IMG/VR virus record: IMGVR_UViG_2711768068_000024
Strand: one strand, 5' to 3'
Length of the DNA stretch: 43,439 bases
DNA from: a virus
Taxonomy: Duplodnaviria > Heunggongvirae > Uroviricota > Caudoviricetes
The notes below the pieces were generated by a model. It did not search any database. It had not been told where the DNA came from and saw only the letters and a list, made by a program, of their open reading frames with translations. Shown here in pieces: positions 1,061-18,297 of the stretch; the stretch's first letter is position 1, and each line of letters opens with the position of its first letter. A program made the position numbers and the translations under genes.

Positions 1061-1070
1061 AATAAATCAA

Positions 1071-1103: not shown

Positions 1104-1118
1104 GGTAGTGGCGGCAAA

Positions 1119-1157: not shown

Positions 1158-1183
1158 CTTGAAATCATGCAAAGAGGTTTCAC

Positions 1184-1666: not shown

Positions 1667-1692
1667 AAACCTGCCGTAGCAGGTTCTCTTTC

Positions 1693-1908
1693 TCAAAAAT
1701 TCATATGCCCCTGACCACCTGGCAATGGATGTGGAGGAGCAGTAGCAATCAGTGCGGGTGTCACAATAAACCGGACCACTGTTTCATGAGTAACAAAAGT
1801 GCTCCCGCAGTTAATATTTTGGCACTGGCAGTAACGCTCTTTGGTGCTTTCAGTTACTTGAAAACTGCTCCTTGTGTGTGCCGCATGACCACACTTTGGA
1901 CAATTCAT
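1693..1908 (-). CDS. ogr: Ogr/B/delta-family zinc-finger late-gene activator
   Basis: MNCPKCGHAAHTRSS...ERYCQCQNINCGSTF is the Ogr C-x2-C...C-x4-C pattern; start taken at the internal Met of the 87-aa track ORF (1693..1956). Confidence 0.8.
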   Translation of the reverse strand: MNCPKCGHAAHTRSSFQVTESTKERYCQCQNINCGSTFVTHETVVRFIVTPALIATAPPHPLPGGQGHMNF

Positions 1909-1979
1909 CATATCCAGATCCCTACCTTTGCTATCAGAATCATTGTAATGATACACAAAATATCAATATTGAGAACCAT

Positions 1980-3080
1980 TTATTCCATTTCAAGATCATC
2001 AATCTTCACTTCGAGTTCAATACTGGTTGTAAAACCGTTATCCGGGCTGACGGTATGTGTCAGAGTCGTAATGGTCCATTCCGCATCATCTATCGGCTGT
2101 TTAAAACCACTGACCTTCACAGGCATTTCCGTGTAGAGATCTGCCCGCCCTTCTGCCAGTTGTAGCGAAAATGACGCAACGCCGCGTTGCAGGCGTTCCC
2201 ACTGCATTTTCGCCGCTCGTTCGGCGTTGCTCCGGTTGGCATAAGTGCGATTAAGTACCAGCACGTTTTCATCCGTACCCACCAGGTAATCGCCCTGCTT
2301 CGCTTCTGGCTCTTTCTTCTGCTTCTTAGTTCTGCGCTTACGCTTCACCGTGGTGCTTTCTTTCTTCGCAGGTTCGCGGGTATGCAACCAGCTGGCAATT
2401 ACGCCCGTGTAGGCTCCGCGATCTGCCAGGGTAAATCGGTGACTGTCGCCGTCCTTGCGTGTGATAGTGATCACTGGCAGAGGTTTACCAGTGGCGCTTT
2501 TGCCCTGCCCCTGCCGGATGAATAACAGATTGCCATTTTTCACCGACGCGATGGCACCGTACTGTCGCGCCAGCCGCATCAGAAAACTGCCGTCACTCTC
2601 ATTAGTCTGGTCTATATGCTCCACGGGCTTATCCGACAGGTCTTTACCCAGTGCCATCTTCAGCTTGTGCCGCGCGGCTATTTCCTTCACCACTTCCCCG
2701 ACGGTGGTCTTATGCCACGATTTTTCACGGCGGGTATTCAGCGTTTCCCGAAAATCAGCACTTCGCGCCCGGATAGTCAGGCGGTCCGGTACGCCAGTGT
2801 GTTCAATCTCGTCCACTGTGAATGCCCCTTTCGGGAAAAGCGGCTGCCCCTTCCAGCCCAGCGCCAGCGTAATGACCGCACCACGGCGCGGCAGCACGAT
2901 TTTTCCGTCAGCGTCATCCAGCTCCAGATCAAGCTGGTCCGCTTCAAAGCCCCGGTTATCCGTCAGCGTCAGACTCATCAGGCGGTTATCCAGCACAGTG
3001 GTGATATCCCTGCCCTCAATACTGATGCTGAATGCGGGAGTTTTGTTGCCTTTGTTAAGCAGTTCAGAGCTGAAATTCAC
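1980..3080 (-). CDS. Tail protein gpD
   Basis: 366-aa ORF at the P2 gene D position (after U, before ogr). Confidence 0.8.
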   Translation of the reverse strand: MNFSSELLNKGNKTPAFSISIEGRDITTVLDNRLMSLTLTDNRGFEADQLDLELDDADGKIVLPRRGAVITLALGWKGQPLFPKGAFTVDEIEHTGVPDRLTIRARSADFRETLNTRREKSWHKTTVGEVVKEIAARHKLKMALGKDLSDKPVEHIDQTNESDGSFLMRLARQYGAIASVKNGNLLFIRQGQGKSATGKPLPVITITRKDGDSHRFTLADRGAYTGVIASWLHTREPAKKESTTVKRKRRTKKQKKEPEAKQGDYLVGTDENVLVLNRTYANRSNAERAAKMQWERLQRGVASFSLQLAEGRADLYTEMPVKVSGFKQPIDDAEWTITTLTHTVSPDNGFTTSIELEVKIDDLEME

Positions 3081-3562
3081 GACAGCAGCCCTCCCACCGT
3101 TTTACTGATATCGCTTAAGGCAGACGTTGCCGTGTCCTGCAGATTATTCAGTTGCGCACTGAGATCACCGAACATATCGGACAGGGATTCATCCACTCGT
3201 TTGAGCGACAGGGTGAACTCAATCCGGCGCGGCATACCGTCGCGGAAAAACTCCGTTTTAGTCTGATTCAGTCCCTCAATCACATACATGCCGTAAATCG
3301 TGCCGCTGCCTTCAATCAGGGGCCATGCTTTCCCCTGTTCTGCCATCTGCTCCAGTGCCAGCAACGACAGCCTGCCGCCTGTTATCTCCGGCATAAGAAC
3401 ACCAGAAAGCGTCAGCATGTCGTTTTCCGGTCCCAGAAACTGCGTGGACGGACGTCGGTTTACCCGACTGTTTGCCGCATGTCGCCAGCTGCGTTGATAC
3501 TGCAGTTCCTGATACGGAACGGTGCGCAGCATAAACACGTACAATCCCAGCACCATCATCAT
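3077..3562 (-). CDS. Tail protein gpU
   Basis: 161-aa ORF, 4-nt overlap with D and T, P2 synteny. Confidence 0.8.
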   Translation of the reverse strand: MMMVLGLYVFMLRTVPYQELQYQRSWRHAANSRVNRRPSTQFLGPENDMLTLSGVLMPEITGGRLSLLALEQMAEQGKAWPLIEGSGTIYGMYVIEGLNQTKTEFFRDGMPRRIEFTLSLKRVDESLSDMFGDLSAQLNNLQDTATSALSDISKTVGGLLS

Positions 3563-6500
3563 GCGTCGTATCCCCCCTGATCGCTGTAGTTACTCCTGGC
3601 TTTTGCCTTCAGCCTGCGTTCACGTTCATCAAGCTGGCGTGCCACCTCCCGCGCAATATCCTGCGCACTTTGTCCTGGCTGCGTCTGAATGATGATCTGC
3701 GTCGGTGCCTCAATCCGTTGAACGAGTGGCACAGTGGCTGCGCGACTCACCATCGCTTCACCGCCTTTCGCGGGAAGTGCCAAAGGGTGCAGCGGTGGAA
3801 GCTCTGCTGGCGCGGCAGCAACGCCCATCATTCCGGCAACAACGGCAGCCAGTGCAGCTGTATTTCTCCGGCTGGTCACATTTGCCGGGCCGTTAACAAT
3901 TTCCGGCCCGTTTTCACCGACGATGCCAAACTGCCCGCGCGGGATATACCCGCCGCTGTCATACATCCCCGCAAAGCCATATCCCCATGATGGAAAACCA
4001 CCCGATGGCATCATCACTTTACCGTCTGCATTCACCGTCGCAGGTTGCTGACGCGTCACGCTTTCCGGCAGTTTTGCCTTTGCGGCCTCTTTACTGACAA
4101 TACCGAGCTTCTCCAGCAACCAGGAAACGCCGGATTTCAGGGAGTCCAGCGGATGCATGACCATATTCAGCCCTTCCGCCAGTGCCTCCCCGAATCGCCG
4201 CCCCATTGCCGCTGCACTCTGCAGTTCGGCAGAGGTCGACTTAACGGGCGTCAGCAGATCAGTAAACCAGCCCCACAGCGCCTGTACATTGTCGCTAATC
4301 CACTGAAACACAGGCTTAAGTGGTTCGAATGCAGCACTGATGGGACCTGCCGCCGCTTTGAATCCTTCCACCACGCCACCGAGAAATGCGGTGATGGGTT
4401 GCCAGTATTTCCAGACAACCAGCGCCACGCCCGCCAGTGCAGTAACCACAAGACCTATCGGACTGAGCAGAGCACCTAACAGACCAGATATGGCATACAG
4501 GGCAACGCGCAGCATCGCCAGCGGACCAGATGCAAGCACACGAAGCACCGCGCCTGCGGCAGCCAGCCCACCGCGCAGAACCGCCAGAGGATTCATAAAC
4601 ATCACAGCAACAGCACGTAAAGCGGATAATCCAGACCGCAATAGTGCAACCGGCGCACCTGCTACAGTTTTCAGGACATTTCCCGTCAGTGATGCCGTAC
4701 GGCGCAAAGACGACAACGGCGCAGTAAGTAAACCCGCTGCGTTACACGATGAAGCAAGCCCGCGTCGCAGCACTGCCAGTGGAGCGCCAGCCAGCCAGGA
4801 CAACGCGCTGCTGGTTCGTGTTACTGCTGCCGTAACGGAAGGTAACGTTTTGATGCCCAGCACAGAGAATCCCAGACGGATGACTGCCAGCGGCCCCAGC
4901 ACTGCAGCCAGCGCCACAGCCAAGGTGCCGAGGCCTACGGTAACCGCAGCCACCACAGCTGCTACTTTCATCAGTGTGCCTGTCAGTTCCGGGTTAGCTT
5001 CCACCCAGCGGCGCAACGCCCCCGTGATGCTTTTCACCGTGTACAGAATATCCATCAGCGGCTGGCGCAGCGTTTCGCCCAGGCTGCTGAAGGTGTTCTG
5101 CGCTCCGGTTTTGACCAGCAACCACTGCGCAGAAAGTGAGTCCTTGTTAATGTCGGATTCTTTCTGCATGGAGCCGAGCGCATCATTGCCCGCTGTCAGT
5201 TTTAGCTGGCGCTGCAGTTCCGGCAGGTTGTTTGCCAGTTTCGCCGCGTCATCGCCAAACTCTTTACCAAACAACATGGTCATGGCAGACAGACGTTTAT
5301 CCTGCGGCAGTGCGTTCACCTTCTCCAGTACGCGCTGGATAGTTCCCATCGCATCCTTCGTCATCTGCTTTTCAATCACTTCAGGATTGAGTTTCAGCAG
5401 ATTCATCCCTTCAAAGAAACTCTTGCTTTGCATGGTGGCAATGGACAATTCACGCACCATCGCGTTTGCTGCACTGGCTGCAACCTCCGGCGCAGCGCCC
5501 AGTGTCAGAAAGGTGGAACCCAGTGCCGCCGCTTTACGATAATCCAGACGGTCAGCCACACCGCCCAGACGTTGCATCACATCAATGATGTCCGCCCCTT
5601 TCGACATGGCGTTATCATCCAGATAGTTCAGCGCATCGCCGAGCTGTTCAATATTGCGGGTAGGTATTTTGTAGAGCTGGGCGATTTTCCCCAGACTTTC
5701 TGACAGTTCATCCGCTGGCAGCTCAAAGGCTGTTGCCGCCTTTGCTGCCGTACTGGCGAAGGCCAGCAGGTCACGTTTCTGGTCCTCCCAGCTGTCGTCA
5801 GGGTTTGCGACATTCATGCGCGCCCCACCTTCAACCAGTGCAGCGAAATCCACCGCACCGTTTTCCATCGGCAACTGTTCGCTGGCAGCCTTGATGGCAT
5901 CCTGCATTTCATAAAAACGTGCAGTGCGGTTGCCATTATCGTCACGCAGACCATTGACCTGCTTTGCCACACCTTTCATGGCATCTTCCATGCTGGTATA
6001 GCTTTTTACTGCCGCCATCACTGGCGTCCCCATTGCCAGCCCTGCCGCCGTGGTGGTGGCTCCGGTTCCTGCGATGCGATCGCGCACCTCCAGCGAACGG
6101 GCATAACTGGCACGCGCTGCATTCATCCTGCGCTGAGCTTCCCCCAGTCGCTTCAGCCGCGCCTCCTGTTTCGACAGTTCCTGGTTATAACGTGATGTTT
6201 CACGGGCTAAACGGGCAGTTGCTCCCGCATCATCTTTCGCAGAAATTCCCGCCCGGTACAGTTCAGCACGCACAAGCGCCGTTTGCTTCTGCAAATATTT
6301 TTGTTGTTCTTCCAGGCGTTGGACTGCCAGCGTTTGCCGACCTAAAGCCACAAGATGCCTTTGTGATGGTTGCTCCATCGCCTCCAGCTCAGAGCTAAGC
6401 AAATTAGCCTTCTGTCTGGCATAGTTCAGCCTGTCGCCTAACTTCTTGTTACCAGCCTGCAGCTTGCGAAATTTTTCCAGGCTGTTACCCACCTGATTGA

Positions 6501-6636
6501 GTTGCTTTAATGCGTCACGGGAGTTTCTGATTGCGCCAGCCAGCTCTTTCGAACTGGCCTGTGCAGCACGGAATGGGCGGGTGAGTTTGTCAACCGCATT
6601 AAGAATGACCTGCAGGCGCAGGTTGTTATCACTCAT
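3559..6636 (-). CDS. Tail tape measure protein gpT
   Basis: 1025-aa Ala/Leu-rich protein with central hydrophobic repeats, between E and U. Confidence 0.85.
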   Translation of the reverse strand: MSDNNLRLQVILNAVDKLTRPFRAAQASSKELAGAIRNSRDALKQLNQVGNSLEKFRKLQAGNKKLGDRLNYARQKANLLSSELEAMEQPSQRHLVALGRQTLAVQRLEEQQKYLQKQTALVRAELYRAGISAKDDAGATARLARETSRYNQELSKQEARLKRLGEAQRRMNAARASYARSLEVRDRIAGTGATTTAAGLAMGTPVMAAVKSYTSMEDAMKGVAKQVNGLRDDNGNRTARFYEMQDAIKAASEQLPMENGAVDFAALVEGGARMNVANPDDSWEDQKRDLLAFASTAAKAATAFELPADELSESLGKIAQLYKIPTRNIEQLGDALNYLDDNAMSKGADIIDVMQRLGGVADRLDYRKAAALGSTFLTLGAAPEVAASAANAMVRELSIATMQSKSFFEGMNLLKLNPEVIEKQMTKDAMGTIQRVLEKVNALPQDKRLSAMTMLFGKEFGDDAAKLANNLPELQRQLKLTAGNDALGSMQKESDINKDSLSAQWLLVKTGAQNTFSSLGETLRQPLMDILYTVKSITGALRRWVEANPELTGTLMKVAAVVAAVTVGLGTLAVALAAVLGPLAVIRLGFSVLGIKTLPSVTAAVTRTSSALSWLAGAPLAVLRRGLASSCNAAGLLTAPLSSLRRTASLTGNVLKTVAGAPVALLRSGLSALRAVAVMFMNPLAVLRGGLAAAGAVLRVLASGPLAMLRVALYAISGLLGALLSPIGLVVTALAGVALVVWKYWQPITAFLGGVVEGFKAAAGPISAAFEPLKPVFQWISDNVQALWGWFTDLLTPVKSTSAELQSAAAMGRRFGEALAEGLNMVMHPLDSLKSGVSWLLEKLGIVSKEAAKAKLPESVTRQQPATVNADGKVMMPSGGFPSWGYGFAGMYDSGGYIPRGQFGIVGENGPEIVNGPANVTSRRNTAALAAVVAGMMGVAAAPAELPPLHPLALPAKGGEAMVSRAATVPLVQRIEAPTQIIIQTQPGQSAQDIAREVARQLDERERRLKAKARSNYSDQGGYDA

Positions 6637-6762
6637 CGTTGGCCCCGCATCTCTGAATCGCTTTATACCGCCATTCCAGCACTTCGGTCAGCGGCATAAC
6701 GTCAGTAACGGATGGCGGCCAGTGAAAAATGGTGGCGATATCTGCCACCAGATCGTCAACCG

Positions 6763-7065
6763 TCAGGCTGTCGGTAAACCGGCAAGCACCGACTTCTTCA
6801 ACAAAAAAGTGACAACCTCAACCGACATGGCTGTGAGATCTGCCGGGTCCATCTCTGCGATTTCCTGTGCAGTCAGTGCCGGACTGGAGATGCGGGGGAT
6901 CACGGTCATCATCGCGTTCACATCCATATCCATAATGGCCTGCAGGCGTGTGCCGCGCAGCGCACCAGACTGCGGTTTACGCAACACAATTTCGGTAATT
7001 TCTGTTTTACCGCGCATGATGGGGGTATCCAGTTGAATGGTCTTTTCAGTCTGTTTATCGCTCAT
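6763..7065 (-). CDS. Tail assembly chaperone gpE (E+E' by -1 frameshift)
   Basis: 100-aa ORF upstream of T; contains TTTTTTG slippery heptamer near its 3' end; the -1 frame stays open across the E-T gap. Confidence 0.75.
   Translation of the reverse strand: MSDKQTEKTIQLDTPIMRGKTEITEIVLRKPQSGALRGTRLQAIMDMDVNAMMTVIPRISSPALTAQEIAEMDPADLTAMSVEVVTFLLKKSVLAGLPTA
6802..6808 (-). other. Programmed -1 frameshift slippery heptamer T-TTT-TTG (E/E')
   Basis: Codons ACT TTT TTG (..VTFLLKK..) of gpE; position matches the P2 E/E' frameshift site. Confidence 0.5.
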
Positions 7066-7119
7066 TTTGTTGTCCTGTAAATTAGGTTCTGGCGCGGCAT
7101 TCCGCGCCGTTCAGATACA

Positions 7120-7635
7120 TCAGAGGCCGAGGGCGTTGCGGTGCGCTTCCATCAGGTCCACACCGTCCACAATTTCCACCATGTTGATAAGGTCAACTTC
7201 ATAGAGCACCTCACCATTGATGGTCAGCTTCGCGTAGCTGTTGGTACTGGTCACTTTGGTAGTGTTGCTTTCGCCCGTCTTCCACTCGCCGGAATCCACT
7301 TCTTTGTGACGTCCACGCACGACAAGCTCCACGGCCTGCACTTCCCCGGTATCGTCACGCTGGATAGAGCCGGTAAAGCGCAGCTGGATGCCATCCACCG
7401 TGGATTTGCCCATCTGCTTAAACAGCAGCAGTTCAGTACCACCAATGGAAAATTCTGTATCCAGTGCACTGTCATCCAGTCCCAGATCCACATCCACCGC
7501 CCCCGGCATACCGCCGCCGCGATACTTCTCATATTTGCGGGTGAATTTCGGCAGCGTCAGCGACTCAACGATCCCCTGCCAGTTGTTCCCGTCGTTAAAC
7601 AAGTTCAGATGTTTTAATTTGCGTGGTAAAGCCAT
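7120..7635 (-). CDS. Tail tube protein gpFII
   Basis: 171-aa ORF directly downstream of the sheath gene. Confidence 0.85.
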   Translation of the reverse strand: MALPRKLKHLNLFNDGNNWQGIVESLTLPKFTRKYEKYRGGGMPGAVDVDLGLDDSALDTEFSIGGTELLLFKQMGKSTVDGIQLRFTGSIQRDDTGEVQAVELVVRGRHKEVDSGEWKTGESNTTKVTSTNSYAKLTINGEVLYEVDLINMVEIVDGVDLMEAHRNALGL

Positions 7636-7644
7636 GTTGTCCCC

Positions 7645-8817
7645 TTACGCGCTGACCTGGCTGGCGAAATTCACCAGGTACTGATCGGTGATGCGCTGGC
7701 GCAGCATCAGATTTTCAAGTGGCGGCACTGGCGTGTAGTCATAGTCGATGGTGAGTTTTCCGGCTTTCAGAGTGTCTTTGTCGTTCACCGACTCGTCCAG
7801 CCAGCAATCACCACCAATGAGATACCCCTGACTGACCAGGCTGCGCATTTTGGCGCGGATGCCCTCGATAATGTCGCGCGCCAGCGACGGGTTCAGCGGT
7901 TTGTCCACTGCCCACATGTGCGCTTCTGCCATTGTGTCCGTCAGCACCTGCGCCGTGCGGGTGTAGTTTTCGAAGGCAAAGAGCGGGTCATCACTCAGGC
8001 AGCGGGAACCCCAGAAGCGGAAACCGTCTTTACGCACAAGCGTAGTGACGTCGTTCTGGTTCAGCAGACCTGCATCGGTTGCCGGGTCCTGCAGATCCCA
8101 GAACACATCTGCAGAAATTCCGGTGACACCGTTCACGCCCACGTTGGACAGGCTTTTGTGCCACCCAGTCTGCTCATCAATTTTGGCACGCAGACCAAGC
8201 GCACGGGCGGTGGCATATGCCGTTGCTTCGGCATTCAGCACCGTGTCCCAGCCAGTAAAGTCGGGCCAGATCAGCATTCCTTCGCGCTGGCTGAAGTTTT
8301 CACGGTAAGTGATCGCCTCCTGCACCGTATTGCAGCCATACGCTGACAGGTAAGCAAACCCACGCAGGCTTTGCGCCACACTCAGCAACTCAGTAGCAAC
8401 GGCTTTGTTATCGTGACCTGGCACGCCGAGAATGCGCGGTTTAACGCCGAGCTGTGTCTGGGCAGATAACAGGGCTTTCATGCCTGTTTTTTTACCTTCA
8501 GCAGTCACTGCGCCGATGATATTGGTCGTGGTTTCTTCTTCCGTTTCACCCTGCGGCACACGCACAACAACGGTCACGGGTTTTGCCTGGTCAGCGATGG
8601 CATCCAGCGAACGGGCCAGCGTGCCGGACTCACCCGCTTTACCGCTGGCAGTCAGCACATCAGTGATCAGCACGGGTTTATTAAGAGGAAACATTTTTGC
8701 ATCGGCATCATCGCCCGTGCAGACCATACCCACGATGGCGGTGCTCACCGTGGTAATGGATCGGGTGCCTTCGTTGATTTCAACAACGCGCACCCCGTGG
8801 TGGTAATCCTGAGCCAT
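7645..8817 (-). CDS. Tail sheath protein gpFI
   Basis: 390-aa ORF, P2 FI-like size and position. Confidence 0.9.
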
Positions 8818-9608
8818 AGCGGCGAACCTCCTGATTGGATTAGGCTTCGCCCTATGTTGAAGTGATTGTGCCCGACAAACAGCTAAGTGTAGTTGTACAG
8901 TTATTCACACAAAATGACGGTATTTGTCTACTTGCAGGGATAATCAAAATTATGCTGATTCAGGGGATTCACTGCTCTTATTTGCCGGAAATTTTCTATA
9001 AATGGTAGAAATGCCCACATCAAAAATCAGTGCAATACGCTGTCTTGATTCTCCGGCCTCTAGTAAACGTCCAATCTGTGCCCACTGTTCGGTGGTCAAC
9101 TTAGGACGGCGTCCACCTACTCTGCCTTTGTCGCGAGCTGCAGCAATCCCCGCCCTGGTACGTTCAACTATCAGTTCGCGTTCCATTTCAGCCAGGGCAC
9201 CCATGACATGAAAAAAGAAACGGCCCATTGGGGTACTGGTATCAATACTGTCAGTCAGGCTTCGGAAATTCACGCCACGCTGGCGCAACTCTTCTATCAG
9301 CGTAACAAGATGCCGCATACTGCGTCCCAACCTGTCCAGCTTCCAGACAACCAGCGTGTCACCTGCCGATAGTGTCCTGAGTAGTTTTTTCAGCCCCGGT
9401 CTGTCGGACTTAGTGCCACTGATTTTGTCCTCAAAAATCCGCTCACATCCCGCACAGTTCAGTGCATTGCGTTGCAAATCGGTGTTCTGGTCATTTGTTG
9501 ACACGCGTACATAGCCAATAAGCATGATCATCCCCCTGAATAAAAACCGGAGATGATGCCAGTTAGCCGTTATCTCTGCATTTTCATAAACGTTGGTTTG
9601 GGAGAAGC
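8333..9608. repeat. Left copy of a 1276-bp perfect inverted repeat (5' 485 bp of sheath gene + invertase gene + crossover site)
   Basis: Mirror image of 11137..12412 (left + right coordinate = 20745); identical translations of invertase (193 aa) and sheath N-terminus (160 aa) in both copies; intergenic stretches compared by eye. Confidence 0.85.
8950..9531 (-). CDS. Serine DNA invertase (Hin/Gin/Cin/Pin family)
   Basis: 193 aa from MIMLIGYVRVSTNDQNTDLQ... (resolvase N-terminal catalytic Ser motif), C-terminal HTH; track ORF 8950..9624 has an unlikely N-terminal extension. Confidence 0.9.
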   Translation of the reverse strand: MIMLIGYVRVSTNDQNTDLQRNALNCAGCERIFEDKISGTKSDRPGLKKLLRTLSAGDTLVVWKLDRLGRSMRHLVTLIEELRQRGVNFRSLTDSIDTSTPMGRFFFHVMGALAEMERELIVERTRAGIAAARDKGRVGGRRPKLTTEQWAQIGRLLEAGESRQRIALIFDVGISTIYRKFPANKSSESPESA

Positions 9609-10227
9609 AACATTTGGCGCTCAAAATTGCGCTGTATTTGATAATGCAGGCGTCAGCACCTGGAATGTTCCTGACATAGTGAAAAAGGGCCGACGCGTCA
9701 GGGTGAAGGTTATCGGCGGTGGCGGGTCTGGCGGTTACCCGTCGATAAGCTCAACGAACGCTGCCGGTGGCGGCGGCGGTGGCGGCGGTGGTGTGAGCGA
9801 GTCCGTCATTGACTTAACAGGTATTGACACCGTCACAATCACTGTAGGCAGTGGTGGCGAAAGTCAAAATACGTCAGCAAGAAATGGAAATCCTGGCGGC
9901 ACCAGTAGTTTTGGCGCATATCTCTCGGCAACAGGTGGAGACGGTGGGGGGCAGGTATCCGGAGGAGCGGGGGGAAAAGGTGTGGGGGGGCAGATAAATA
10001 CGTCTCTTGGCCCTGGCTCTCCTGGTGCATCAATGATAGCAGGCACTGATTCGGCTGTCGGAGGTAGCGGTGGTGGTCCTGGCGGGAATGGACAGGTTTT
10101 AGATTCGGCGGGGAATGTTGGCAGTAATGCAAAAGGTCCTGGCGGTGGTGGCGCTGGGTTGGCAACGAAAAAGATTGGCGGAGTTACTGGTGCTGGTCAT
10201 AGCGGGATTGTAATTATTTATTGGTGA
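9553..10227 (+). CDS. Alternative tail-fibre C-terminal cassette (Gly-rich), currently not joined to the fibre N-terminus
   Basis: Reads ...GLGEA then diverges at the crossover site; Gly-rich fibre-tip-like sequence; lies inside the invertible segment on the strand opposite gene H. Confidence 0.6.
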   Translation: MMPVSRYLCIFINVGLGEATFGAQNCAVFDNAGVSTWNVPDIVKKGRRVRVKVIGGGGSGGYPSISSTNAAGGGGGGGGGVSESVIDLTGIDTVTITVGSGGESQNTSARNGNPGGTSSFGAYLSATGGDGGGQVSGGAGGKGVGGQINTSLGPGSPGASMIAGTDSAVGGSGGGPGGNGQVLDSAGNVGSNAKGPGGGGAGLATKKIGGVTGAGHSGIVIIYW

Positions 10228-10237
10228 GGTATAAATT

Positions 10238-10396
10238 ATGTGGGCACGAATTGAAAACAACGTGGTAATGGAGTTAACTGATATAGACCCAACGGGTAGA
10301 TATCATGACTCGTTAATCTGGGTTGAATGCCCTGCTGACACACAGCCGGGCTATACATACAGTAGCGGCGAATTTACTCCACCACCGGAGGCGTAG
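10238..10396 (+). CDS. Short tail-fibre-assembly-like ORF (52 aa), partner of the alternative cassette
   Basis: ATG with GAGG RBS right after the cassette; MWARIENNVVMELTDIDPTGRYH...; converges on and overlaps the 3' end of the opposite-strand assembly gene; below the 60-aa track cutoff. Confidence 0.35.
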   Translation: MWARIENNVVMELTDIDPTGRYHDSLIWVECPADTQPGYTYSSGEFTPPPEA

Positions 10397-10787
10397 GCCA
10401 TTCAATATCTGGCGCACCGGAAGTATCGACCAGTTCCAGTGCGTCCAGATAATCCAGCCACAAATTATATTGCGCCAGTTCCTCACTTTTCAGACGACCA
10501 ATAGCCGCTTTACCAGGCCATTGTCTGTTGTTCATGTGCTCGTTGGCTTCATTAATAAGTTTTCTTTTTTTCAAATCCGCCAATTCAATAAGGTTTTCTT
10601 TTGATAAAGGTGGTTGCTCTGTCAAAACCGGATATCCCTCCTGATTGCTGACTATTTTCATGCCATTATCCTGACCATCCAGTAGTAACAGCCATTCATC
10701 CGTGGTTATCTCAACAGCATCTGAAGGTGCTTTATTTAAATCGGTAAAAAAACCATTTTCTTTTTGTGAATAGAAGTATCTGTCCAT
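10374..10787 (-). CDS. Tail fibre assembly protein (gpG-like)
   Basis: 137-aa ORF directly downstream of the fibre C-terminal cassette. Confidence 0.7.
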   Translation of the reverse strand: MDRYFYSQKENGFFTDLNKAPSDAVEITTDEWLLLLDGQDNGMKIVSNQEGYPVLTEQPPLSKENLIELADLKKRKLINEANEHMNNRQWPGKAAIGRLKSEELAQYNLWLDYLDALELVDTSGAPDIEWPTPPVVE

Positions 10788-10790
10788 TTA

Positions 10791-11192
10791 TTAATCTCCA
10801 AAAGCAATCCAGTAAGCAAAAGGATTTATTCCTTGCTCAGTCACAGATGACATTAGGGAAAATTGCGATGGTGAAACAGGTAACGCTGCAAAACTAACCA
10901 TTGTTGACACACCTGACCGTGCATTATCGTACGATGCAACAACACAATAATTGGTATTGCTGAAAGATATCGGCAGGGTGATATTTACAGGTGAGCCTAA
11001 TGGCCCTGATGCTGATATTCCCATTTGAATGATGGTTCCATCAGGCAATTTTCTCCAGCGATTAGAACTCGGATTTCTTTTCCAGGCTGACATATCCGGT
11101 ATCTGATTTTCTCCTGTGCCTACATCCCTTTTCGCCGCTTCTCCCAAACCAACGTTTATGAAAATGCAGAGATAACGGCTAACTGGCATCAT
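10791..11192 (-). CDS. Tail-fibre C-terminal cassette carrying the native continuation of H (..[11 protein letters not shown]...PVNITLPISF...AFGD)
   Basis: Shares 173 bp with the 3' end of gene H (12414..12586), then continues 62 codons past the point where H is cut short. Confidence 0.6.
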   Translation of the reverse strand: MMPVSRYLCIFINVGLGEAAKRDVGTGENQIPDMSAWKRNPSSNRWRKLPDGTIIQMGISASGPLGSPVNITLPISFSNTNYCVVASYDNARSGVSTMVSFAALPVSPSQFSLMSSVTEQGINPFAYWIAFGD

Positions 11193-12412
11193 CTCCGGTT
11201 TTTATTCAGGGGGATGATCATGCTTATTGGCTATGTACGCGTGTCAACAAATGACCAGAACACCGATTTGCAACGCAATGCACTGAACTGTGCGGGATGT
11301 GAGCGGATTTTTGAGGACAAAATCAGTGGCACTAAGTCCGACAGACCGGGGCTGAAAAAACTACTCAGGACACTATCGGCAGGTGACACGCTGGTTGTCT
11401 GGAAGCTGGACAGGTTGGGACGCAGTATGCGGCATCTTGTTACGCTGATAGAAGAGTTGCGCCAGCGTGGCGTGAATTTCCGAAGCCTGACTGACAGTAT
11501 TGATACCAGTACCCCAATGGGCCGTTTCTTTTTTCATGTCATGGGTGCCCTGGCTGAAATGGAACGCGAACTGATAGTTGAACGTACCAGGGCGGGGATT
11601 GCTGCAGCTCGCGACAAAGGCAGAGTAGGTGGACGCCGTCCTAAGTTGACCACCGAACAGTGGGCACAGATTGGACGTTTACTAGAGGCCGGAGAATCAA
11701 GACAGCGTATTGCACTGATTTTTGATGTGGGCATTTCTACCATTTATAGAAAATTTCCGGCAAATAAGAGCAGTGAATCCCCTGAATCAGCATAATTTTG
11801 ATTATCCCTGCAAGTAGACAAATACCGTCATTTTGTGTGAATAACTGTACAACTACACTTAGCTGTTTGTCGGGCACAATCACTTCAACATAGGGCGAAG
11901 CCTAATCCAATCAGGAGGTTCGCCGCTATGGCTCAGGATTACCACCACGGGGTGCGCGTTGTTGAAATCAACGAAGGCACCCGATCCATTACCACGGTGA
12001 GCACCGCCATCGTGGGTATGGTCTGCACGGGCGATGATGCCGATGCAAAAATGTTTCCTCTTAATAAACCCGTGCTGATCACTGATGTGCTGACTGCCAG
12101 CGGTAAAGCGGGTGAGTCCGGCACGCTGGCCCGTTCGCTGGATGCCATCGCTGACCAGGCAAAACCCGTGACCGTTGTTGTGCGTGTGCCGCAGGGTGAA
12201 ACGGAAGAAGAAACCACGACCAATATCATCGGCGCAGTGACTGCTGAAGGTAAAAAAACAGGCATGAAAGCCCTGTTATCTGCCCAGACACAGCTCGGCG
12301 TTAAACCGCGCATTCTCGGCGTGCCAGGTCACGATAACAAAGCCGTTGCTACTGAGTTGCTGAGTGTGGCGCAAAGCCTGCGTGGGTTTGCTTACCTGTC
12401 AGCGTATGGCTG
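11137..12412. repeat. Right copy of the 1276-bp perfect inverted repeat
   Basis: Reverse complement of 8333..9608; ends mid-codon inside the sheath sequence. Confidence 0.85.
11214..11795 (+). CDS. Serine DNA invertase, second identical copy
   Basis: Translation identical to 8950..9531. Confidence 0.85.
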   Translation: MIMLIGYVRVSTNDQNTDLQRNALNCAGCERIFEDKISGTKSDRPGLKKLLRTLSAGDTLVVWKLDRLGRSMRHLVTLIEELRQRGVNFRSLTDSIDTSTPMGRFFFHVMGALAEMERELIVERTRAGIAAARDKGRVGGRRPKLTTEQWAQIGRLLEAGESRQRIALIFDVGISTIYRKFPANKSSESPESA

Positions 12413-12413
12413 A
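11928..12413 (+). pseudogene. Duplicated 5' fragment of the tail sheath gene (first 160 codons), truncated at the duplication junction
   Basis: Identical to the first 160 aa of gpFI, then an immediate stop created at the repeat boundary. Confidence 0.8.
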
Positions 12414-13634
12414 GATATTTACAGGTGAGCCTAATGGCCCTGATGCTGATATTCCCATTTGAATGATGGTTCCATCAGGCAATTTTCTCCAGCGATTAGA
12501 ACTCGGATTTCTTTTCCAGGCTGACATATCCGGTATCTGATTTTCTCCTGTGCCTACATCCCTTTTCGCCGCTTCTCCCAAACCAAGGTATGTGAGAAGA
12601 CCAGCTACATCCTTTCCACTCAAATTAGTCAGCGTATTGTCCAGCGGTTGTTTACCTGCCAGCGCATTAAGCATTGTCGTGGCAAAGTTCGGGTCATTCC
12701 CCAGCGCCGCCGCCAGTTCGTTCAATGTATCCAGTGCCGCAGGTGCAGAACCCACCATTCCTGCAATCGCCGATTTCACAAAAGCCGTAGTGGCAATCTG
12801 TGTATTGTTGACCGACTGTGCCGCAGTAGGTGCTGTTGGCGTTCCGGTAAGTGCCGGACTCGACAGCGGCGCTTTCAGTGCCAGCGCATTATTAATAGTG
12901 GTACTGAATTTCGGGTCATTGTTAATGGCTGCGGCAATTTCTTTCAGTGTGTCCAGCGTGGCTGGCGCACCGTTAATCAGAGCAGTAATAGCGGCCTGAA
13001 CAAACTCTGTGGTCGCAATCCGAGTGGTGTTATTTCCTGCTGCAGGCGTCGGCGCTTTTGGTTCTCCGGTAAATGTCGGATTATGTTTCTGCGCATACTG
13101 GGTATGAGGATCTTGTGCGGCAATGTGGTTTCTCATCTGGTCATCCACATACAGCTTTAATTCCAGGACTTTATCATCCACGTATTTACGGGTTGCCAGC
13201 ACTACAGCAGGGTCGATTTTCAGGATGATATTGTCCGTGCTGCTGGTAATCAGCACCATGCGCACGGTCTGGGTACGCCCGCTGCCTTCAGCCAGTTGCG
13301 GCTTATAGCTTTCCGGGCAGTTTCCCACGGCAATCAATGCCCCGGACTCATCAAACAGGCCCACTTCACGTATCCACCAACCGCCCTCGTTTTCAGGGAT
13401 CACCTGTTCAGCAATAATCTGGCTACTGTTCTGCGGGTCGATATAAAGCATATTCAACGCAGCCCGGCGTTTCTCATTTACCAGTGCCGTCTGCTTTGCG
13501 TCCGGCGTCGGTAATACTCCGCCGCCATCGCCGACCGCCATATGGGTAATTTTTAGCGGCACACCGAGCGCGGCGGCGCTGGCAAGTTTCGCCGCGCCAA
13601 TATCCGTCAGCAGGGTATAAAATTTTGTGCTCAT
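12399..13634 (-). CDS. Tail fibre protein gpH (constant N-terminal part; C-terminus cut by the junction)
   Basis: N-terminus [21 protein letters not shown]...MAVGDGGG is P2 H-like; ends ...PVNISAIR* where the last 4 codons come from the junction sequence. Confidence 0.85.
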
Positions 13635-14236
13635 GGATTCACTCTCATTGTGTCAATAACATGGACCGCCCCGCCTTCATGCGCGGTGCCGCCAGAAATA
13701 ATTGTTTCGTTGATATACGGATAAATCGTGATTTCTTCGCCAAGATAGCTGGCAGCTCCCACCCAATGCGGGCCGCTGGTCTGCAGATTGATGGACATGC
13801 CGATCATGTGGCGGCTACATGGTTTGGCATCGCTTATCAGTCGCTCAAGTTCCAGATAAGTATCTTCAGTGATGCCCTGGTCCTGCACGCCGATATCCAG
13901 GCGAAACGTGCCCGGTGCCTCTCCGGTCTGCCACCACTCAATAATGCGGATCAGAAAGCCGAACGGCTCCACCACCCGCCGCACGGCACTGGTGGTCCCT
14001 TTATGCTGATGAATATAAAAAGCATCCTTCACCACCTGGCGCTTGACGCTTTCTGTCCAGCCCTCGTCCCAGCGATCCACAGAGAACGCCCAGGCGAGAT
14101 AAGGCAGGAAACTGACCGGGCAGGTTGCCGGATTCCACAAGTCACGAAGCGGCACCTGCAGATCAGAAATCCCGCTGCAGGTTTGCGCCAGTCGGCGCTC
14201 CAGTGGTGTTGAACCCGGTGGCAGCAGACTATTCAT
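13631..14236 (-). CDS. Baseplate protein gpI
   Basis: 201 aa, P2 synteny, 4-nt overlap with H. Confidence 0.8.
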
Positions 14237-15137
14237 CCGTTCCTCCGTTGGTTACGCTCCACTGCGTACATGATGCCGCCTGTGTTTTGTTCAGGACCAC
14301 ATCCGCCAGAGGAGAAGCCAGCTCCACACGCTGCACACCCTCAACATGCAGGGCGGCAAAGATGGCGCTACGGCGAATATCCCGACCAAGACGCGTCTGA
14401 CTGGCGATGTACTTCTGCAGGCTGGCTTTTGCCGCTGCCATTACCGGCTCTGCTTCCGGTCCCGGATAGAGAAAAATGGTGGCTTCCACGCGGTACGGGA
14501 TGATTTCCGCGCTGCGAACCGTCAGACGGTCAGCCACCGGGCGGACATTCTCACTGTTCAGTGCTTTCTCCACCACATCCAGCAGGTCTTTTTCTGCTGT
14601 TCCGTCGCCTTCGCGGCTAAGGACTGTCAGCACCACCTCTGCAGGTGCCGGACTGGTTGCACTGGCATCCGCCACCCGACCGTCGGCGCTTCGGGCATGA
14701 AATTCATAAGCGGCAGTTGGTCCCGCAACTGAAAGCCCCTCAAAGGCTGCAGGCACACGCAGGCGTAACGCTTCATCGCTTTCCATCACTGCAGCAACGG
14801 GCGGCACAGCGTCATTATCAGCAGGCGTCACCGTCAGGCGTTTCACGTTGTAGTTGGCAGCGATCTGGTCAAGATCGCTGCCCATAGCGTAAGCCACCAT
14901 CACAGCCTGCGCGGCTTCGTTAATGCGCTGGCGCAGAAGCAACTCACGGTAAGCGTTCTCCTGCAGCAATTTGGTGACGGGTTCAGATTCCAGTTCAAGC
15001 GTGCGGATCACTGCTTCCTGCTCATCTTTCGGATGAAGCGCAACAAATTCGGCCTTGCGTTCGGCAAGCAGCGTCTCAAAGTCCGGCACATCCACAATCT
15101 GCGGCGCAGGCAACTGCGAAAGGTCAATCACTGCCAT
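14229..15137 (-). CDS. Baseplate protein gpJ
   Basis: 302 aa from MAVIDLSQLP (start chosen inside the 315-aa track ORF to match P2 J length and the overlap with W). Confidence 0.8.
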   Translation of the reverse strand: MAVIDLSQLPAPQIVDVPDFETLLAERKAEFVALHPKDEQEAVIRTLELESEPVTKLLQENAYRELLLRQRINEAAQAVMVAYAMGSDLDQIAANYNVKRLTVTPADNDAVPPVAAVMESDEALRLRVPAAFEGLSVAGPTAAYEFHARSADGRVADASATSPAPAEVVLTVLSREGDGTAEKDLLDVVEKALNSENVRPVADRLTVRSAEIIPYRVEATIFLYPGPEAEPVMAAAKASLQKYIASQTRLGRDIRRSAIFAALHVEGVQRVELASPLADVVLNKTQAASCTQWSVTNGGTDE

Positions 15138-15483
15138 TCTCTGCTCCTGTTGATACGGAAAGGGAAACAGGCACACCGTTATTACGCCGCCCGGTCAGCT
15201 CCACCACCATTGAACCGTCAAAATTGCTGTTAATGGTGATGGAATCCAGCGTCAGCCGTGGCTCCCAGCGACTCAGCGCCACATACACTGCCGACATGAC
15301 CTGCAGGCGTAGTGCCGGATTTTGTGGCTGGTCTATCAGTGCCGACAGCAGAGAACCATATTCCCGACGGGCAATGCGGCTACCCTGTGGCGTGATGAGT
15401 ATGTCTTTAACAGACTGATTGAGGTGCTCAATATCGGTAATGGCCTTGCCCGTTGCGCTGTTCATGCCGTAATACATCGTCAT
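15124..15483 (-). CDS. Baseplate protein gpW
   Basis: 119 aa, P2 synteny. Confidence 0.8.
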   Translation of the reverse strand: MTMYYGMNSATGKAITDIEHLNQSVKDILITPQGSRIARREYGSLLSALIDQPQNPALRLQVMSAVYVALSRWEPRLTLDSITINSNFDGSMVVELTGRRNNGVPVSLSVSTGAENGSD

Positions 15484-16058
15484 ACCGGGCCTCCCGATGT
15501 GTCGCCGCCAGACTTCACTTTATTGTGCGCGTGGTCATCCACCACGATCTCGTTGGAACTCATCGGGCCGCCGCCCTGAGTCACACCACCGTTGATCACC
15601 ACCTCACTGTTAATACGGGTGGTGTCGGCTTCCACGATAAACTCCCCGGTTTTGAAGGTGACGTTATCCACCGCCTCGATCACCATGGATTTAATACCCC
15701 GAACGTACCAGCGCCCGGTTTCGGGGTCGTACTCAAACCAACCGCCGTCTGGGTATTCCGTCACGTTGCCGTCCTCAGACTTGGACGGCGGCGGAAACTG
15801 GTTTGAATAGACGGCAGGCAGGGCAAAGGCGGTTTCCAGATTGCCGCCCAGGCTGAACAGCACAACCTGCTCCCCCACAGACGGTTTCCACCAGGTGCGC
15901 GAGTTGCCCGCGCGCAGCGTCAGCCAGTTAATCCAGTTGGTTTCAAGCTCACCCGTTTTCACCCGGCACAGCCAGTTGTCCCGGTCCACTTCCGTTACAG
16001 TTCCGGTGCGGATTAGGTTGGTGATAAGGCGCATGATTTCTGTGAGTTGTGCGTTCAT
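15480..16058 (-). CDS. Baseplate spike/assembly protein gpV
   Basis: 192 aa, P2 synteny. Confidence 0.85.
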   Translation of the reverse strand: MNAQLTEIMRLITNLIRTGTVTEVDRDNWLCRVKTGELETNWINWLTLRAGNSRTWWKPSVGEQVVLFSLGGNLETAFALPAVYSNQFPPPSKSEDGNVTEYPDGGWFEYDPETGRWYVRGIKSMVIEAVDNVTFKTGEFIVEADTTRINSEVVINGGVTQGGGPMSSNEIVVDDHAHNKVKSGGDTSGGPV

Positions 16059-16172
16059 AGCTATAGATTGCCATGAATGATGTATCTAAGAACAAGGTGA
16101 GCTTAGTCTGGTCCATGACACAATTAAGAATTACTATATAAAAATTGTTAACTACTTGGTTGAGAAACAAAC

Positions 16173-17159
16173 ATGAAAAATAAGAACCAGTATCAGGCTT
16201 TACTTAGAGGGAAGGTCGAATCGGCGATTGCTCAAGCCAAAAGTGCTGCAGGATTTTCCCACCAGGGTGTTAAGGGAGCTGTTCTAGAAATATTATTAAG
16301 TCAACTATTTCGACCTCTTTTGCCCGCAGATGTTGGCATTGGCACAGGGCAAATCATTGAACAGTATTCAGGAAAGTTATCACCTCAAATAGATATTATT
16401 ATTTACAATAAATCAATACTCCCTCCGATATTAATCGATGGTGCCACAGGGTTATTCCCAATAGAATCAGTTCTATATACCATTGAGGTAAAAACCACAT
16501 TAAGTTCATCGGAACTCAGCTCTGCACACTCAAGTGCAAAAGAACTTAATGAGAAATTCGGTTACTTACCTGGAATAAAAGATGAATCAGGCAAACTAAT
16601 CCAACACAAAATAGAGAAACTTCGCTCGGTAATATTTGCTCTAAGTAGTGACTTATCACCAAATGGAATTACTGAAGCCGAAAGGTATAAAAAAATATAC
16701 AAAGAAGACTTTCGTTACGTTACAGCAATTTGCGTTGCAGGTCGTGAGTATAGTTATGAAGATCGAGATTGCTGGGTAACAATGCGTAATACTCAAGCGT
16801 ATGATGAAATCCTTGCATTTATTGGAGGCATAACCAATACATACAAAGGTGTTTCAGAAAGTCGTGGGACACCATTGCTAGGATATTACATTGTTCCAGA
16901 GAATGTCGAACTGAGCCTTACAGCTTGTACCACACTCCCGGAATTGCAAGTTAAGTGCACGCAATGCGCTGAAACTAAAAAAATAATCCCCACCTTTGAC
17001 AACGATGATGAACTAATACTAAAAAACTACACTCTTTCTGATAACAAGCCTTGTAAATGTGGTGGGGAATTTAAATCAGAAAAAGGTAATTTCACCATTA
17101 AAAATGGTCGACTGAGAGAAATAGAGTACAACGAGCCAGATCGAATTTACAAAGAGTAA
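16173..17159 (+). CDS. Cargo (moron) protein: possible PD-(D/E)xK-type motif with C-terminal zinc ribbon; function unknown
   Basis: 328-aa AT-rich ORF on the opposite strand between tail genes V and S; N-terminal region has a possible E...D...E-x-K arrangement (LEILL / QIDIIIYNK / TIEVK); C-terminus CTQC...CKCGG. Confidence 0.65.
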   Translation: MKNKNQYQALLRGKVESAIAQAKSAAGFSHQGVKGAVLEILLSQLFRPLLPADVGIGTGQIIEQYSGKLSPQIDIIIYNKSILPPILIDGATGLFPIESVLYTIEVKTTLSSSELSSAHSSAKELNEKFGYLPGIKDESGKLIQHKIEKLRSVIFALSSDLSPNGITEAERYKKIYKEDFRYVTAICVAGREYSYEDRDCWVTMRNTQAYDEILAFIGGITNTYKGVSESRGTPLLGYYIVPENVELSLTACTTLPELQVKCTQCAETKKIIPTFDNDDELILKNYTLSDNKPCKCGGEFKSEKGNFTIKNGRLREIEYNEPDRIYKE

Positions 17160-17173
17160 ATATAACGAAGGAA

Positions 17174-17620
17174 TTAAGGCCTTAGCCATTTATAAACGAC
17201 AGATGCAATTTCATCTTTGTCAGATGAAGTAAAACCTAGTAACAGCCGCTCCGCATAACGTACCTCTGGCCCCCGGCGGCTTACACGATCGCGCAGGCCG
17301 TAATGGTGAACACGGGCAATACGCTGCACCTTACCTTCAAACTGTACGCTGGCAGAGTCGGCGCTGGCGGCAGTTTTCAGGTATTTTGTGGTGCGCAGCT
17401 TTGCAAACATCTGACGTTTGATGCGCCCCTTTTTACTGCGTGCTGTTACCCGTCGAGGTTCATAACTGCTGCCATCTGGATTGCGCTGCATTCTGATATT
17501 CTGCTGCTGTGTCCGGCGCAGTTCCTGCGCCAGCTGGCGCATCATGCGGCTTCTTGCGGCTGGTTCCAGATTCGCCAGCAAAGCACTCAGCCAATCGTCC
17601 ACCTTCTGCAGTTCAGCCAC
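17174..17620 (-). CDS. Tail completion protein gpS
   Basis: 148 aa, P2 synteny. Confidence 0.8.
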   Translation of the reverse strand: MAELQKVDDWLSALLANLEPAARSRMMRQLAQELRRTQQQNIRMQRNPDGSSYEPRRVTARSKKGRIKRQMFAKLRTTKYLKTAASADSASVQFEGKVQRIARVHHYGLRDRVSRRGPEVRYAERLLLGFTSSDKDEIASVVYKWLRP

Positions 17621-18065
17621 GTTTCACCGTCCACATTTCTTCAGGTTCATCGGGTTCCGCTACCGCTTCAACACTCGACACACTGCCGTCAGTGCTGACC
17701 AGCACACGCTCCGTCAGTTGCAGGTTAAGGCTGATATCACAGACATCGTTGCGCAAAATATCCACCTCAAAGGTGAATAGTTTTTCCCGTAACGCCGGGT
17801 TATTGATGGCATCGGGCTGGTTATCACGCAGCCACAGCAAAACCGGGGCCATCAGCAGATTCTGGTCGCCGCTGAAATCCTCAATCACCACGTTGAGGGT
17901 ATAACGGTACTCCCATGACATGGAGCTGGCCCCCGTGGCAACCAGCGAACCGTTATCCACAAACAGATGCAGTTTGTCCGGGTTATTGCGGACATAAGGC
18001 ACTGCTTTATTGAGGGCGTGGCGCAGGGACTGTGGTTTGTTCACTGTTTCGCTCCTGACACGCAA
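17613..18065 (-). CDS. Tail completion protein gpR
   Basis: 150 aa, P2 synteny. Confidence 0.8.
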   Translation of the reverse strand: MRVRSETVNKPQSLRHALNKAVPYVRNNPDKLHLFVDNGSLVATGASSMSWEYRYTLNVVIEDFSGDQNLLMAPVLLWLRDNQPDAINNPALREKLFTFEVDILRNDVCDISLNLQLTERVLVSTDGSVSSVEAVAEPDEPEEMWTVKRG

Positions 18066-18297
18066 TAATCATGTCCACTTTGTCTGCACAGACCGCCCAG
18101 GCGGCCTCCGTTTCATCCAGCAATGCGTTCAGATCACCGTTAGTGCGCGGCGCTGCCTGCTCCAGCCGACACGGCGTCACTCGCGGACAACCACTGACGG
18201 TAAGCTGCACCTCCGGTGAGTGCCGGACGTTCCCGCAGCCGGATAATGTCAGCAGGCAAAGGAGTATCAGCCCAGCGGCGTAAATCCTCGTTCTCAC
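18007..18297 (-). CDS. Outer-membrane lipoprotein spanin (LysC/Rz1-like)
   Basis: 96 aa with signal peptide and lipobox LTLSGC; starts inside lysB in another frame and extends past it. Confidence 0.65.
   Translation of the reverse strand: MRTRIYAAGLILLCLLTLSGCGNVRHSPEVQLTVSGCPRVTPCRLEQAAPRTNGDLNALLDETEAAWAVCADKVDMIIACQERNSEQTTVPAPRPQ

Follow-up and report, generated by a model that had tools for sequence, protein, structure and literature searches.

We found that the 1.3-kb inverted duplication beside the tail-fibre genes of a prophage in IMG/VR record IMGVR_UViG_2711768068_000024 is likely an assembly artefact, in which two contigs would have been joined through a one-base placeholder on an ordinary fibre switch. 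The whole stretch of DNA analysed, 43,439 nucleotides, is referred to here as the window. Judging from its sequence, the second invertase gene and the truncated fibre gene are probably absent in reality, and the third crossover site is probably not real.

The prophage and its fibre switch

The host element is an ordinary P2-like (Peduoviridae) prophage at ssrA, and the locus is a two-site invertible tail-fibre segment of the Gin/Cin/Hin type. The intact, FI-like tail sheath gene (7645..8817, minus strand; 390 aa) was recognized by the Pfam domains Phage_sheath_1, Phage_sheath_1C and Gp18_domIII_N and by the sheath annotation in relatives. Next to it is the native serine DNA invertase of the Gin/Cin/Hin/Pin type (8950..9525, minus strand; 191 aa). 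It has an N-terminal resolvase catalytic domain (Pfam Resolvase, PF00239, E=8e-53) and a C-terminal HTH (Pfam HTH_7, PF02796, E=2e-14), and residues 1-184 match the Mu Gin structures 3uj3 and 4m6f (E=4e-93 to about 1e-92).

The invertible segment, B (9607..11138), was defined by its Pfam domains and by the presence of both orientations in other assemblies. It carries an open reading frame for an alternative fibre C-terminus with a Gly_rich_2 domain (9553-10227, plus strand), an open reading frame of 52 aa (10238-10396, plus strand), a tail-fibre assembly gene with a Caudo_TAP domain (10374-10787, minus strand) and a fibre C-terminus cassette with a Gp53-like_C domain (10791-11192, minus strand). 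The Gly_rich_2 cassette points in the opposite direction from the Gp53-like_C and Caudo_TAP cassette. In relatives, gene H is fused to one or the other, giving a 560-aa H-Gly_rich protein (locus L004) or a 469-aa H-Gp53-like protein (locus L001).

In the window, gene H (12399..13634, minus strand) is written as the constant N-terminal part and 52 aa of the Gp53-like cassette, followed by ...SPVNISAIR and a stop. It encodes 411 aa rather than 469, and becomes full-length again when the 1434 extra bases are removed. The ...SAIR end given for this gene in the original prediction is confirmed.

A pattern search found three crossover sites in the window, compared to none expected by chance, and all three are intact at 26 bp. 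The left site, xL (9581..9606), reads TTCTCCCAAACC AA CGTTTATGAAAA on the minus strand and has its central dinucleotide at 9593-9594. The middle site, xM (11139..11164, plus strand), is the exact reverse complement of xL. The right site, xR (12573..12598, plus strand), reads TTCTCCCAAACC AA GGTATGTGAGAA and has its central dinucleotide at 12585-12586. Sequence identity between sites stops at the central AA. The outer pair, xL and xR, are inverted relative to each other and lie at the segment borders. The sites resemble the crossover sites and the consensus in Table 3 of PMC4134206.

Duplicated blocks in the window

A repeat search of the window gave inverted arms at 8328-9608 and 11137-12417, the five outer positions of which include mismatches. 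Within these arms, 8333-9608 is the exact reverse complement of 11137-12412 over 1276 nt, and a chance origin would be far too unlikely for a perfect inverted repeat of this length. The left arm includes the first 485 nt of the sheath gene (8333-8817). The right arm (11137..12412, plus strand) contains a second copy of the invertase gene (11220-11795, plus strand), with a translation identical to that of the first, and a 5' fragment of the sheath gene (11928-12413, plus strand; 161 aa). The sheath copy ends after 161 codons and 2 nt, and the A at 12413 completes a TGA stop.

The right arm is followed by a direct repeat. Positions 10980-11164 and 12414-12598 (185 nt) are 98% identical, with an exact core of 173 nt (10980..11152 and 12414..12586, both plus strand). 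The first copy of this core consists of the end of the Gp53-like cassette and the shared half of the crossover site; the second was identified by the repeat search and by comparison with relatives. The spacer between 12412 and 12414 is exactly one base, A, in a window without any N. This base matches neither flank: the continuation of the sheath gene has C and the base preceding 10980 is T. The sequences on both sides of 12413 (11137-12412 and 12414-12586) are redundant, each having a 100%-identical counterpart in another part of the record. The original prediction had described the perfect 1276-bp inverted duplication, the 173-bp repeat after a single junction base and the mid-codon end of the right sheath copy, and all three are exact as it gave them.

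The window contains junctions from both orientations of the segment, as had also been predicted. The left junction (A to B_l) and the right junction (B_r to C) belong to one orientation. The middle one (B_r-x-A') arises naturally in the opposite, flipped orientation; 19 complete E. coli genomes have it, as do 100%-identical copies of the window's prophage. Among related loci, orientation 1 is present in L001 and L006, and orientation 2 in E. coli F719, L004, L005 and L009, in addition to the 19 complete genomes. The inserted block is the reverse complement of no contiguous stretch of a single orientation. A planted simple inverted copy was rejected, as the block carries the other orientation's natural junction.

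Comparison with normal copies of the prophage

Compared with a 100%-identical prophage in another assembly, the window has 1434 additional bases and no other difference. We flipped the window in silico at the central dinucleotides of the outer crossover sites. The flipped window contained a head-to-tail repeat with a period of 1434, with copies at 8333-9765 and 9767-11199 and one novel junction. After the flip and removal of 1434 bases, there were 0 mismatches over 16,636 nt to GCA_976943095.1, which contains the same prophage with normal structure. The head-to-tail result is predicted equally by a real duplication followed by inversion and by an end-to-end join of redundant contigs.

Other assemblies of the same prophage, a comparison suggested with the original prediction, had the normal structure and no duplication. 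At least 24 contigs encode an identical tape measure protein; the duplication was absent from all 6 places among the matches listed, and 2 of these 6 contigs span the region with normal structure. The closest complete genome, that of E. coli F719, carries the segment in the flipped orientation, with normal junctions at the crossover sites. F719 is missing the sequence corresponding to 5615-8466 of the window, and one endpoint of this deletion is in the sheath gene, 134 nt from the window's breakpoint. We considered a relationship between the two events, but the junctions differ and each structure can be derived independently from a normal ancestor, making the deletion uninformative.

Exact queries of 30, 24 and 36 nt across the novel junction (the 36-mer with a wildcard at the filler base) found no match in GTDB genomes, IMG/VR or JGI metagenomes, searched with a positive control. 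The junction was also missing from 5,426 complete E. coli genomes. The truncated H protein had no match among gene products on record in an exact-protein look-up. The 161-aa sheath fragment had one match, on a 653-nt metagenome contig that ends at that codon and does not include the junction. We do not count this contig as support for the junction; it merely ends there, a coincidence. A junction found once cannot distinguish an artefact from a recent event.

Evidence for a probable contig join

We compared each of 166 related loci with itself. In four of them, perfect duplications, both inverted and direct, lie beside the invertase: L114 (IMG/VR UViG_2698536335_000014), L109 (2693429728_000004), L141 (2747843111_000001) and L165 (2695420821_000010). 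Each has a literal single N at every block boundary, including the position equivalent to 12413, and this single N is a one-base scaffold gap. None of the 166 loci had such a duplication without an N. The error is recurrent: these four are among 80 related loci in IMG/VR. The layout of L114 is exactly that of the window (C'-x-B part, one base, A fragment-x-B-x-A'), with blocks of 802 and 912 nt compared to 173 and 1276 nt. The spacer is one base in the window and in these scaffolds, but it is A in the window and N in the others.

Assemblies often break at this locus. The crossover site is where draft contigs of this prophage (L005, L007 and L008) stop, and by our reading of the table of species-representative genomes, 22 of 79 invertase loci have a contig end no more than about 200 nt upstream of the invertase gene. 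Three further scaffolds have runs of N in this place. Some scaffolders write a non-positive gap as one N. In ALLPATHS-LG, overlapping contigs are recorded as negative gaps (PMC5368935).

These observations suggest how the structure could have formed. In the underlying switch, gene H receives its C-terminus from one of two alternative cassettes on a segment of ~1.5 kb, and the Gin/Cin/Hin-type invertase flips this segment between two inverted 26-bp crossover sites. Both orientations were presumably present in the sequenced culture. Contig 1 would run from the sheath gene through the invertase gene and the crossover site into segment B, and at the far crossover site would follow reads from the flipped orientation. 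It would then re-enter the invertase and sheath genes for 1276 nt and stop at 12412, the right arm being its redundant tail. Contig 2 would begin 173 nt inside B and continue into H from 12414, with 12414-12586 as its redundant head. The ends would be redundant but not overlapping, and may therefore have been joined with a one-base gap at 12413. The second invertase, the sheath fragment and the truncated H would all be by-products of this join. The filler is A rather than N, so a conversion of N to A or a gap-filling step must be assumed, and this counts against the model. The model gives no reason for contig ends at 8333 and 10980.

We favor this artefact for several reasons: all four analogues have the single N, the one-base filler matches neither flank, the novel junction turned up in none of the collections searched, these crossover sites are regular break points in draft contigs, artefactual duplications at such regions have been warned of in print (PMC4134206), and removal of 1434 bases yields a normal prophage identical to that in GCA_976943095.1. 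The original prediction also favored a chimeric assembly, made from a population with an actively inverting segment. The evidence points the same way, but mixing of orientations alone cannot make the junction between sheath and fibre sequences at 12412/12414. From our comparisons, that junction appears best explained by the joining of redundant contig ends via a one-base placeholder. A spurious de Bruijn join at a k-mer present on both sides was rejected, as at most 3 nt are common to them at the breakpoint.

Alternative explanations

It is possible, but unlikely, that the artefact arose by another route, in which an extra piece was merged into the chromosome in a long-read assembly and then polished, with no scaffolder placeholder. 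The piece might have been an alternative-allele contig, a chimeric read or the untrimmed overhang at the end of a circular contig. PacBio alternative-allele contigs have been described at such segments, with a warning against merging them (PMC4134206), and polishing would yield an insertion that is base-perfect but structurally wrong. The filler A could then be a poor terminal base or a remnant of A-tailing. However, a filler of exactly one base is predicted less well by this route than by the single-N analogues, and long-read assemblers normally drop chimeric reads and pop such bubbles.

A real rearrangement seems quite improbable. It would have involved tandem duplication of 1434 nt in the flipped orientation and then inversion by the invertase between the outer crossover sites. 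The duplicated unit would comprise the 5' part of the sheath gene, the invertase gene, the crossover site, the last 157 nt of the fibre cassette and one filler base. Inversion would have converted an unstable tandem repeat to a more stable inverted repeat with three sites and two invertases, and with H truncated in the present state. The original prediction had offered an inversion-associated duplication as its alternative. That idea reduces to one tandem duplication and one ordinary inversion, but none of the collections searched contains another sequence with the novel junction that would support it independently.

The perfect period-1434 repeat obtained by inversion in silico, and the identity of the remainder to a normal relative, agree with a real event, but the artefact model predicts the same geometry. 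The components needed are in place: the three 26-bp sites are intact, and so is the invertase, which is close to Gin. Yet it would be a coincidence for a duplication to extend across the crossover site, whereas trouble at that site is expected under the artefact. The neighbouring sequence is of high quality, and the window, otherwise base-perfect relative to an independent assembly, fits a correctly assembled real rearrangement equally well. In addition, a de Bruijn assembler cannot invent a novel junction. Against this, the junction was found in no other sequence searched, all four structural analogues have N there, and the filler is exactly one base, as it is in them.

Implications and comparison with known systems

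If the contig-join explanation is right, its main use is as a quality flag. Without such a flag, annotation of this record would list a second invertase, a sheath pseudogene and a defective fibre, although the prophage is probably intact. The signature to screen for is a pair of long perfect repeats, one inverted and one direct, beside a phage invertase and separated by one odd base. Such a signature also marks a segment that was probably inverting in the culture from which the DNA was sequenced. If the duplication is real, a 1.4-kb duplication across the invertase gene and one crossover site, flipped by its own invertase, would have made a three-site, two-invertase, four-state switch, with one state truncating the fibre. 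It would be an intermediate caught on the path from a two-site switch to a multi-site system such as Min of plasmid p15B, and a modest example of site-specific inversion stabilizing a duplication.

Min of p15B and the R64 shufflon have several inversion states, and the R64 type combines the tyrosine recombinase Rci with many sfx sites, which set several segments apart. With three crossover sites and several states, the window would be comparable to these multi-site systems only if the duplication were real. In contrast to both, the native locus is a single segment with two sites, as in normal copies of the prophage, and its recombinase belongs to the serine family, unlike the tyrosine recombinase Rci of R64. 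We therefore replace the original label of shufflon with that of a two-site serine-invertase segment.

The closer relatives are the serine-invertase switches Gin and the G segment of Mu, Cin and the C segment of P1, Pin and the P segment of e14, and Hin of Salmonella. The Gin-type systems and the window have in common inverted 26-bp sites with a central dinucleotide, an invertase gene adjoining the segment, and alternative fibre C-termini with assembly genes in a mirror arrangement. In contrast to Mu and P1, the window's phage is P2-like (Peduoviridae) and its cassettes are Gp53-like_C and Gly_rich_2.

The nearest parallel is in E. coli EC958, in which prophages Phi1, Phi2 and Phi4 have invertible tail-fibre regions that gave redundant contigs, reported with an explicit warning about artefactual duplication (PMC4134206). 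Both orientations of such prophage segments co-exist within a single culture (Forde et al. 2014, PMC4134206). The 26-bp site of EC958 Phi2, GAGAGATAAACGTT GGTTTGGGGGAA, is very similar to that of the window, TTTTCATAAACGTT GGTTTGGGAGAA. In EC958 the alternative contigs were kept outside the chromosome, whereas in the window the redundant piece was apparently joined in.

Structure of the duplication

We found that the region around the invertase gene is duplicated as the original prediction had described. A repeat search and direct reading of 8280-12660 both showed that 8333-9608 is the exact reverse complement of 11137-12412 (1276 nt), the arms reaching 8328/12417 in the repeat search only with mismatches tolerated, and that 12414-12586 is an exact copy of 10980-11152, a direct repeat prolonged to 11164/12598 if four mismatches are allowed. 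The predicted single junction base, the filler at 12413, is A; continuation of the sheath sequence would give C, and the base preceding 10980 is T. The sheath copy does end abruptly, running for 161 codons to a TGA whose last base is the filler, and the tail fibre gene H (12399-13634, minus strand) does have the described C-terminus, ...SPVNISAIR*.

Comparison with normal copies of the prophage

An identical tape measure protein is encoded on contigs from at least 24 assemblies. A 5.06-Mb contig (L004, GCA_976943095.1) is 100% identical to window positions 1-9608 and 12571-18070; its invertible segment is flipped relative to the window and its junctions are normal. The same prophage in Escherichia coli F719 also has the segment flipped, with normal crossover junctions. 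In E. coli 23-AB02114, the region is 97.8% identical and 1434 nt shorter than the window, and H is intact (469 aa). At its middle junction, the window passes from the end of a fibre cassette through a crossover site to the invertase. Read backwards, this is what the flipped orientation naturally has as its left junction, and it is present in 19 complete E. coli genomes. That is, the window contains junctions of both orientations, as had been claimed. The junction joining 12412 to 12414 through the filler belongs to neither.

F719 (NZ_OY754392.1), the closest complete genome, lacks 2852 nt corresponding to window 5615-8466, from the interior of the tape measure gene to the interior of the sheath gene, with 2 nt of microhomology at the deletion junction. 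Both genes are annotated as pseudogenes, and with both hit by the deletion this prophage is therefore tail-defective. The deletion endpoint in the sheath gene (8467) is just 134 nt from the window breakpoint at 8333. The tape measure gene (window 3559-6636, minus strand) also differs at 4531/4532, where F719 carries one additional copy of an in-frame 30-nt direct repeat, GCAAGCACACGAAGCACCGCGCCTGCGGCA; the two prophages, otherwise near-identical, differ here in copy number.

We flipped window positions 9595-12584 in silico, cutting at the central dinucleotide of each outer crossover site. The flipped window contains a perfect head-to-tail repeat with a period of 1434, and with one repeat copy removed it has 0 mismatches to L004 over 16,636 nt. 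The structure therefore amounts to a single tandem duplication combined with a single ordinary inversion, and equally to two redundant-ended contigs set end to end. The first contig would comprise the sheath/invertase side, a crossover site, the invertible segment, a crossover site and the sheath/invertase side reversed, ending at 12412; the second would begin 173 nt inside the invertible segment and continue through the crossover site into H. Geometry by itself does not discriminate between a real duplication and a contig join.

Similar duplications in related loci

We compared each of 166 loci to itself: 159 surrounding homologues of the invertase in GTDB genomes and IMG/VR, six matched by tape measure, and L010. 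Long perfect duplications near the invertase were found in only four, all IMG/VR scaffolds (of 80 IMG/VR loci examined): 2693429728_000004 (L109), UViG_2698536335_000014 (L114), 2747843111_000001 (L141) and 2695420821_000010 (L165). Like the window, each carries inverted as well as direct blocks, although the inverted blocks of L141 are just 76 nt. Wherever two blocks meet in these scaffolds, the base is a literal single N, a one-base scaffold gap (L109, 2494 and 4146; L114, 4166; L141, 2523 and 5198; L165, 3875). L114, 95-96% identical to the window prophage, has the exact block order of the window: the reversed constant H side, a crossover site, part of the invertible segment (802 nt), one base, a sheath/invertase-side fragment (912 nt), a crossover site, the invertible segment, a crossover site and the reversed sheath/invertase side. 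None of the 158 N-free loci had such a duplication by self-comparison. In three other scaffolds, stretches of N occur upstream of the invertase, no more than ~550 nt away. The four duplications suggest that scaffolding repeatedly goes wrong where a tail-fibre segment is invertible. The window filler occupies exactly the place of the single N, and the simplest reading is that it would be a placeholder of this kind that now reads A.

Contig join or real duplication

The window junction, with any filler base, was not found in GTDB genomes, IMG/VR or JGI metagenomes; as a positive control, a wildcard at the filler position also matches a literal N. The duplicated structure was not found in any complete E. 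coli genome, nor the truncated H protein among gene products on record. The 161-aa sheath fragment had a single match, a metagenome contig of 653 nt whose end happens to fall at that point.

Draft contigs of the same prophage break off at the crossover site: L005 ends at 9610, L007 at 9608 and L008 at 9591. Read off the locus table, in 22 of 79 loci of species-representative genomes the contig stops upstream of the invertase gene, no more than ~200 nt away. Many other contigs end 64-205 nt upstream, and several drafts (L011, L023, L044) have tiny contigs carrying the invertase gene alone; in Escherichia sp. MOD1-EC7003 a 716-nt invertase contig has coverage of 132, versus 41 for one of that genome's large contigs. 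Both of these last patterns suggest that multi-copy invertase genes were collapsed and that sequenced cultures were heterogeneous for inversion. With PacBio sequencing, both orientations of such segments were found together in one culture, yielding extra contigs, and the authors caution that artefactual duplications can arise at these regions (Forde et al. 2014, PMC4134206).

Judging from sequence comparisons, the duplication is most likely a contig-join artefact due to an actively inverting tail-fibre segment. This supports the chimeric assembly originally preferred. Since a de Bruijn assembler cannot create a junction, this one must come from contigs being scaffolded or merged, from a chimeric read, or from DNA that really exists. 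The filler reads A, not N, and its flanks are base-perfect. A real duplication of the invertase/crossover-site region seems improbable: it requires a rare non-homologous event that by chance spans a crossover site, and must also leave exactly one filler base, the same as the N-marked artefacts. If real, the locus would have three crossover sites and four states, and would revert to the normal prophage if the two direct sites, or the 173-nt repeats, recombined with each other. The value of the finding is a recognizable error signature.

The prophage and its tail-fibre switch

The window is E. coli chromosome, in the order smpB, ssrA, a ~37-kb P2-like prophage and an adjoining island. The prophage is flanked by 45-nt direct repeats (1016-1060 and 38005-38049) matching the 3' end of ssrA. 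Directly past the right repeat, a second intact integrase gene (38173-39444, 423 aa) is part of the island; its F719 counterpart is only ~80% identical and broken by IS3.

A pair of cargo genes at 25586-27237 (minus strand), between the portal and replication genes, matched a candidate defence pair in PADLOC, the first gene hitting PDC-M03A (E=2e-122) and the second PDC-M03B (E=3e-93); in the F719 annotation the second gene encodes a HIRAN-domain protein, and the site resembles a P2 cargo hotspot. A DUF6602 gene (16173-17159, plus strand), opposite in strand to its neighbours between the baseplate V and tail completion genes, matched PADLOC PD-(D/E)xK and NucC-like nuclease models (E=7e-32 and 7e-14) and is a possible defence or moron gene.

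Pfam identified the tail sheath (7645-8817, minus), a serine recombinase (8950-9525, minus), a Gly_rich_2 fibre C-terminus (9553-10227, plus), a tail-fibre assembly protein (10374-10787, minus), a Gp53-like_C fibre C-terminus (10791-11192, minus) and the constant fibre N-terminus (12399-13634, minus). After the Gly_rich_2 cassette, where a cognate assembly gene is expected, the only ORF encodes 52 aa (10238-10396, plus), has no Pfam match and runs into the end of the assembly gene that converges on it; the ORF is likewise called in L004, L006 and L009.

The recombinase matches solved Mu Gin structures (E ~1e-92). A pattern with no matches expected by chance located 26-bp crossover sites at 9581-9606 (minus), 11139-11164 (plus) and 12573-12598 (plus). 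The locus is not the shufflon it was first labelled; it is instead a classical two-site host-range switch of the Gin/Cin/Hin type, carried by a P2-like phage. The underlying switch is already well known, and the crossover sites resemble those tabulated for E. coli EC958 prophages and the Mu/P1/e14/p15B consensus (PMC4134206).
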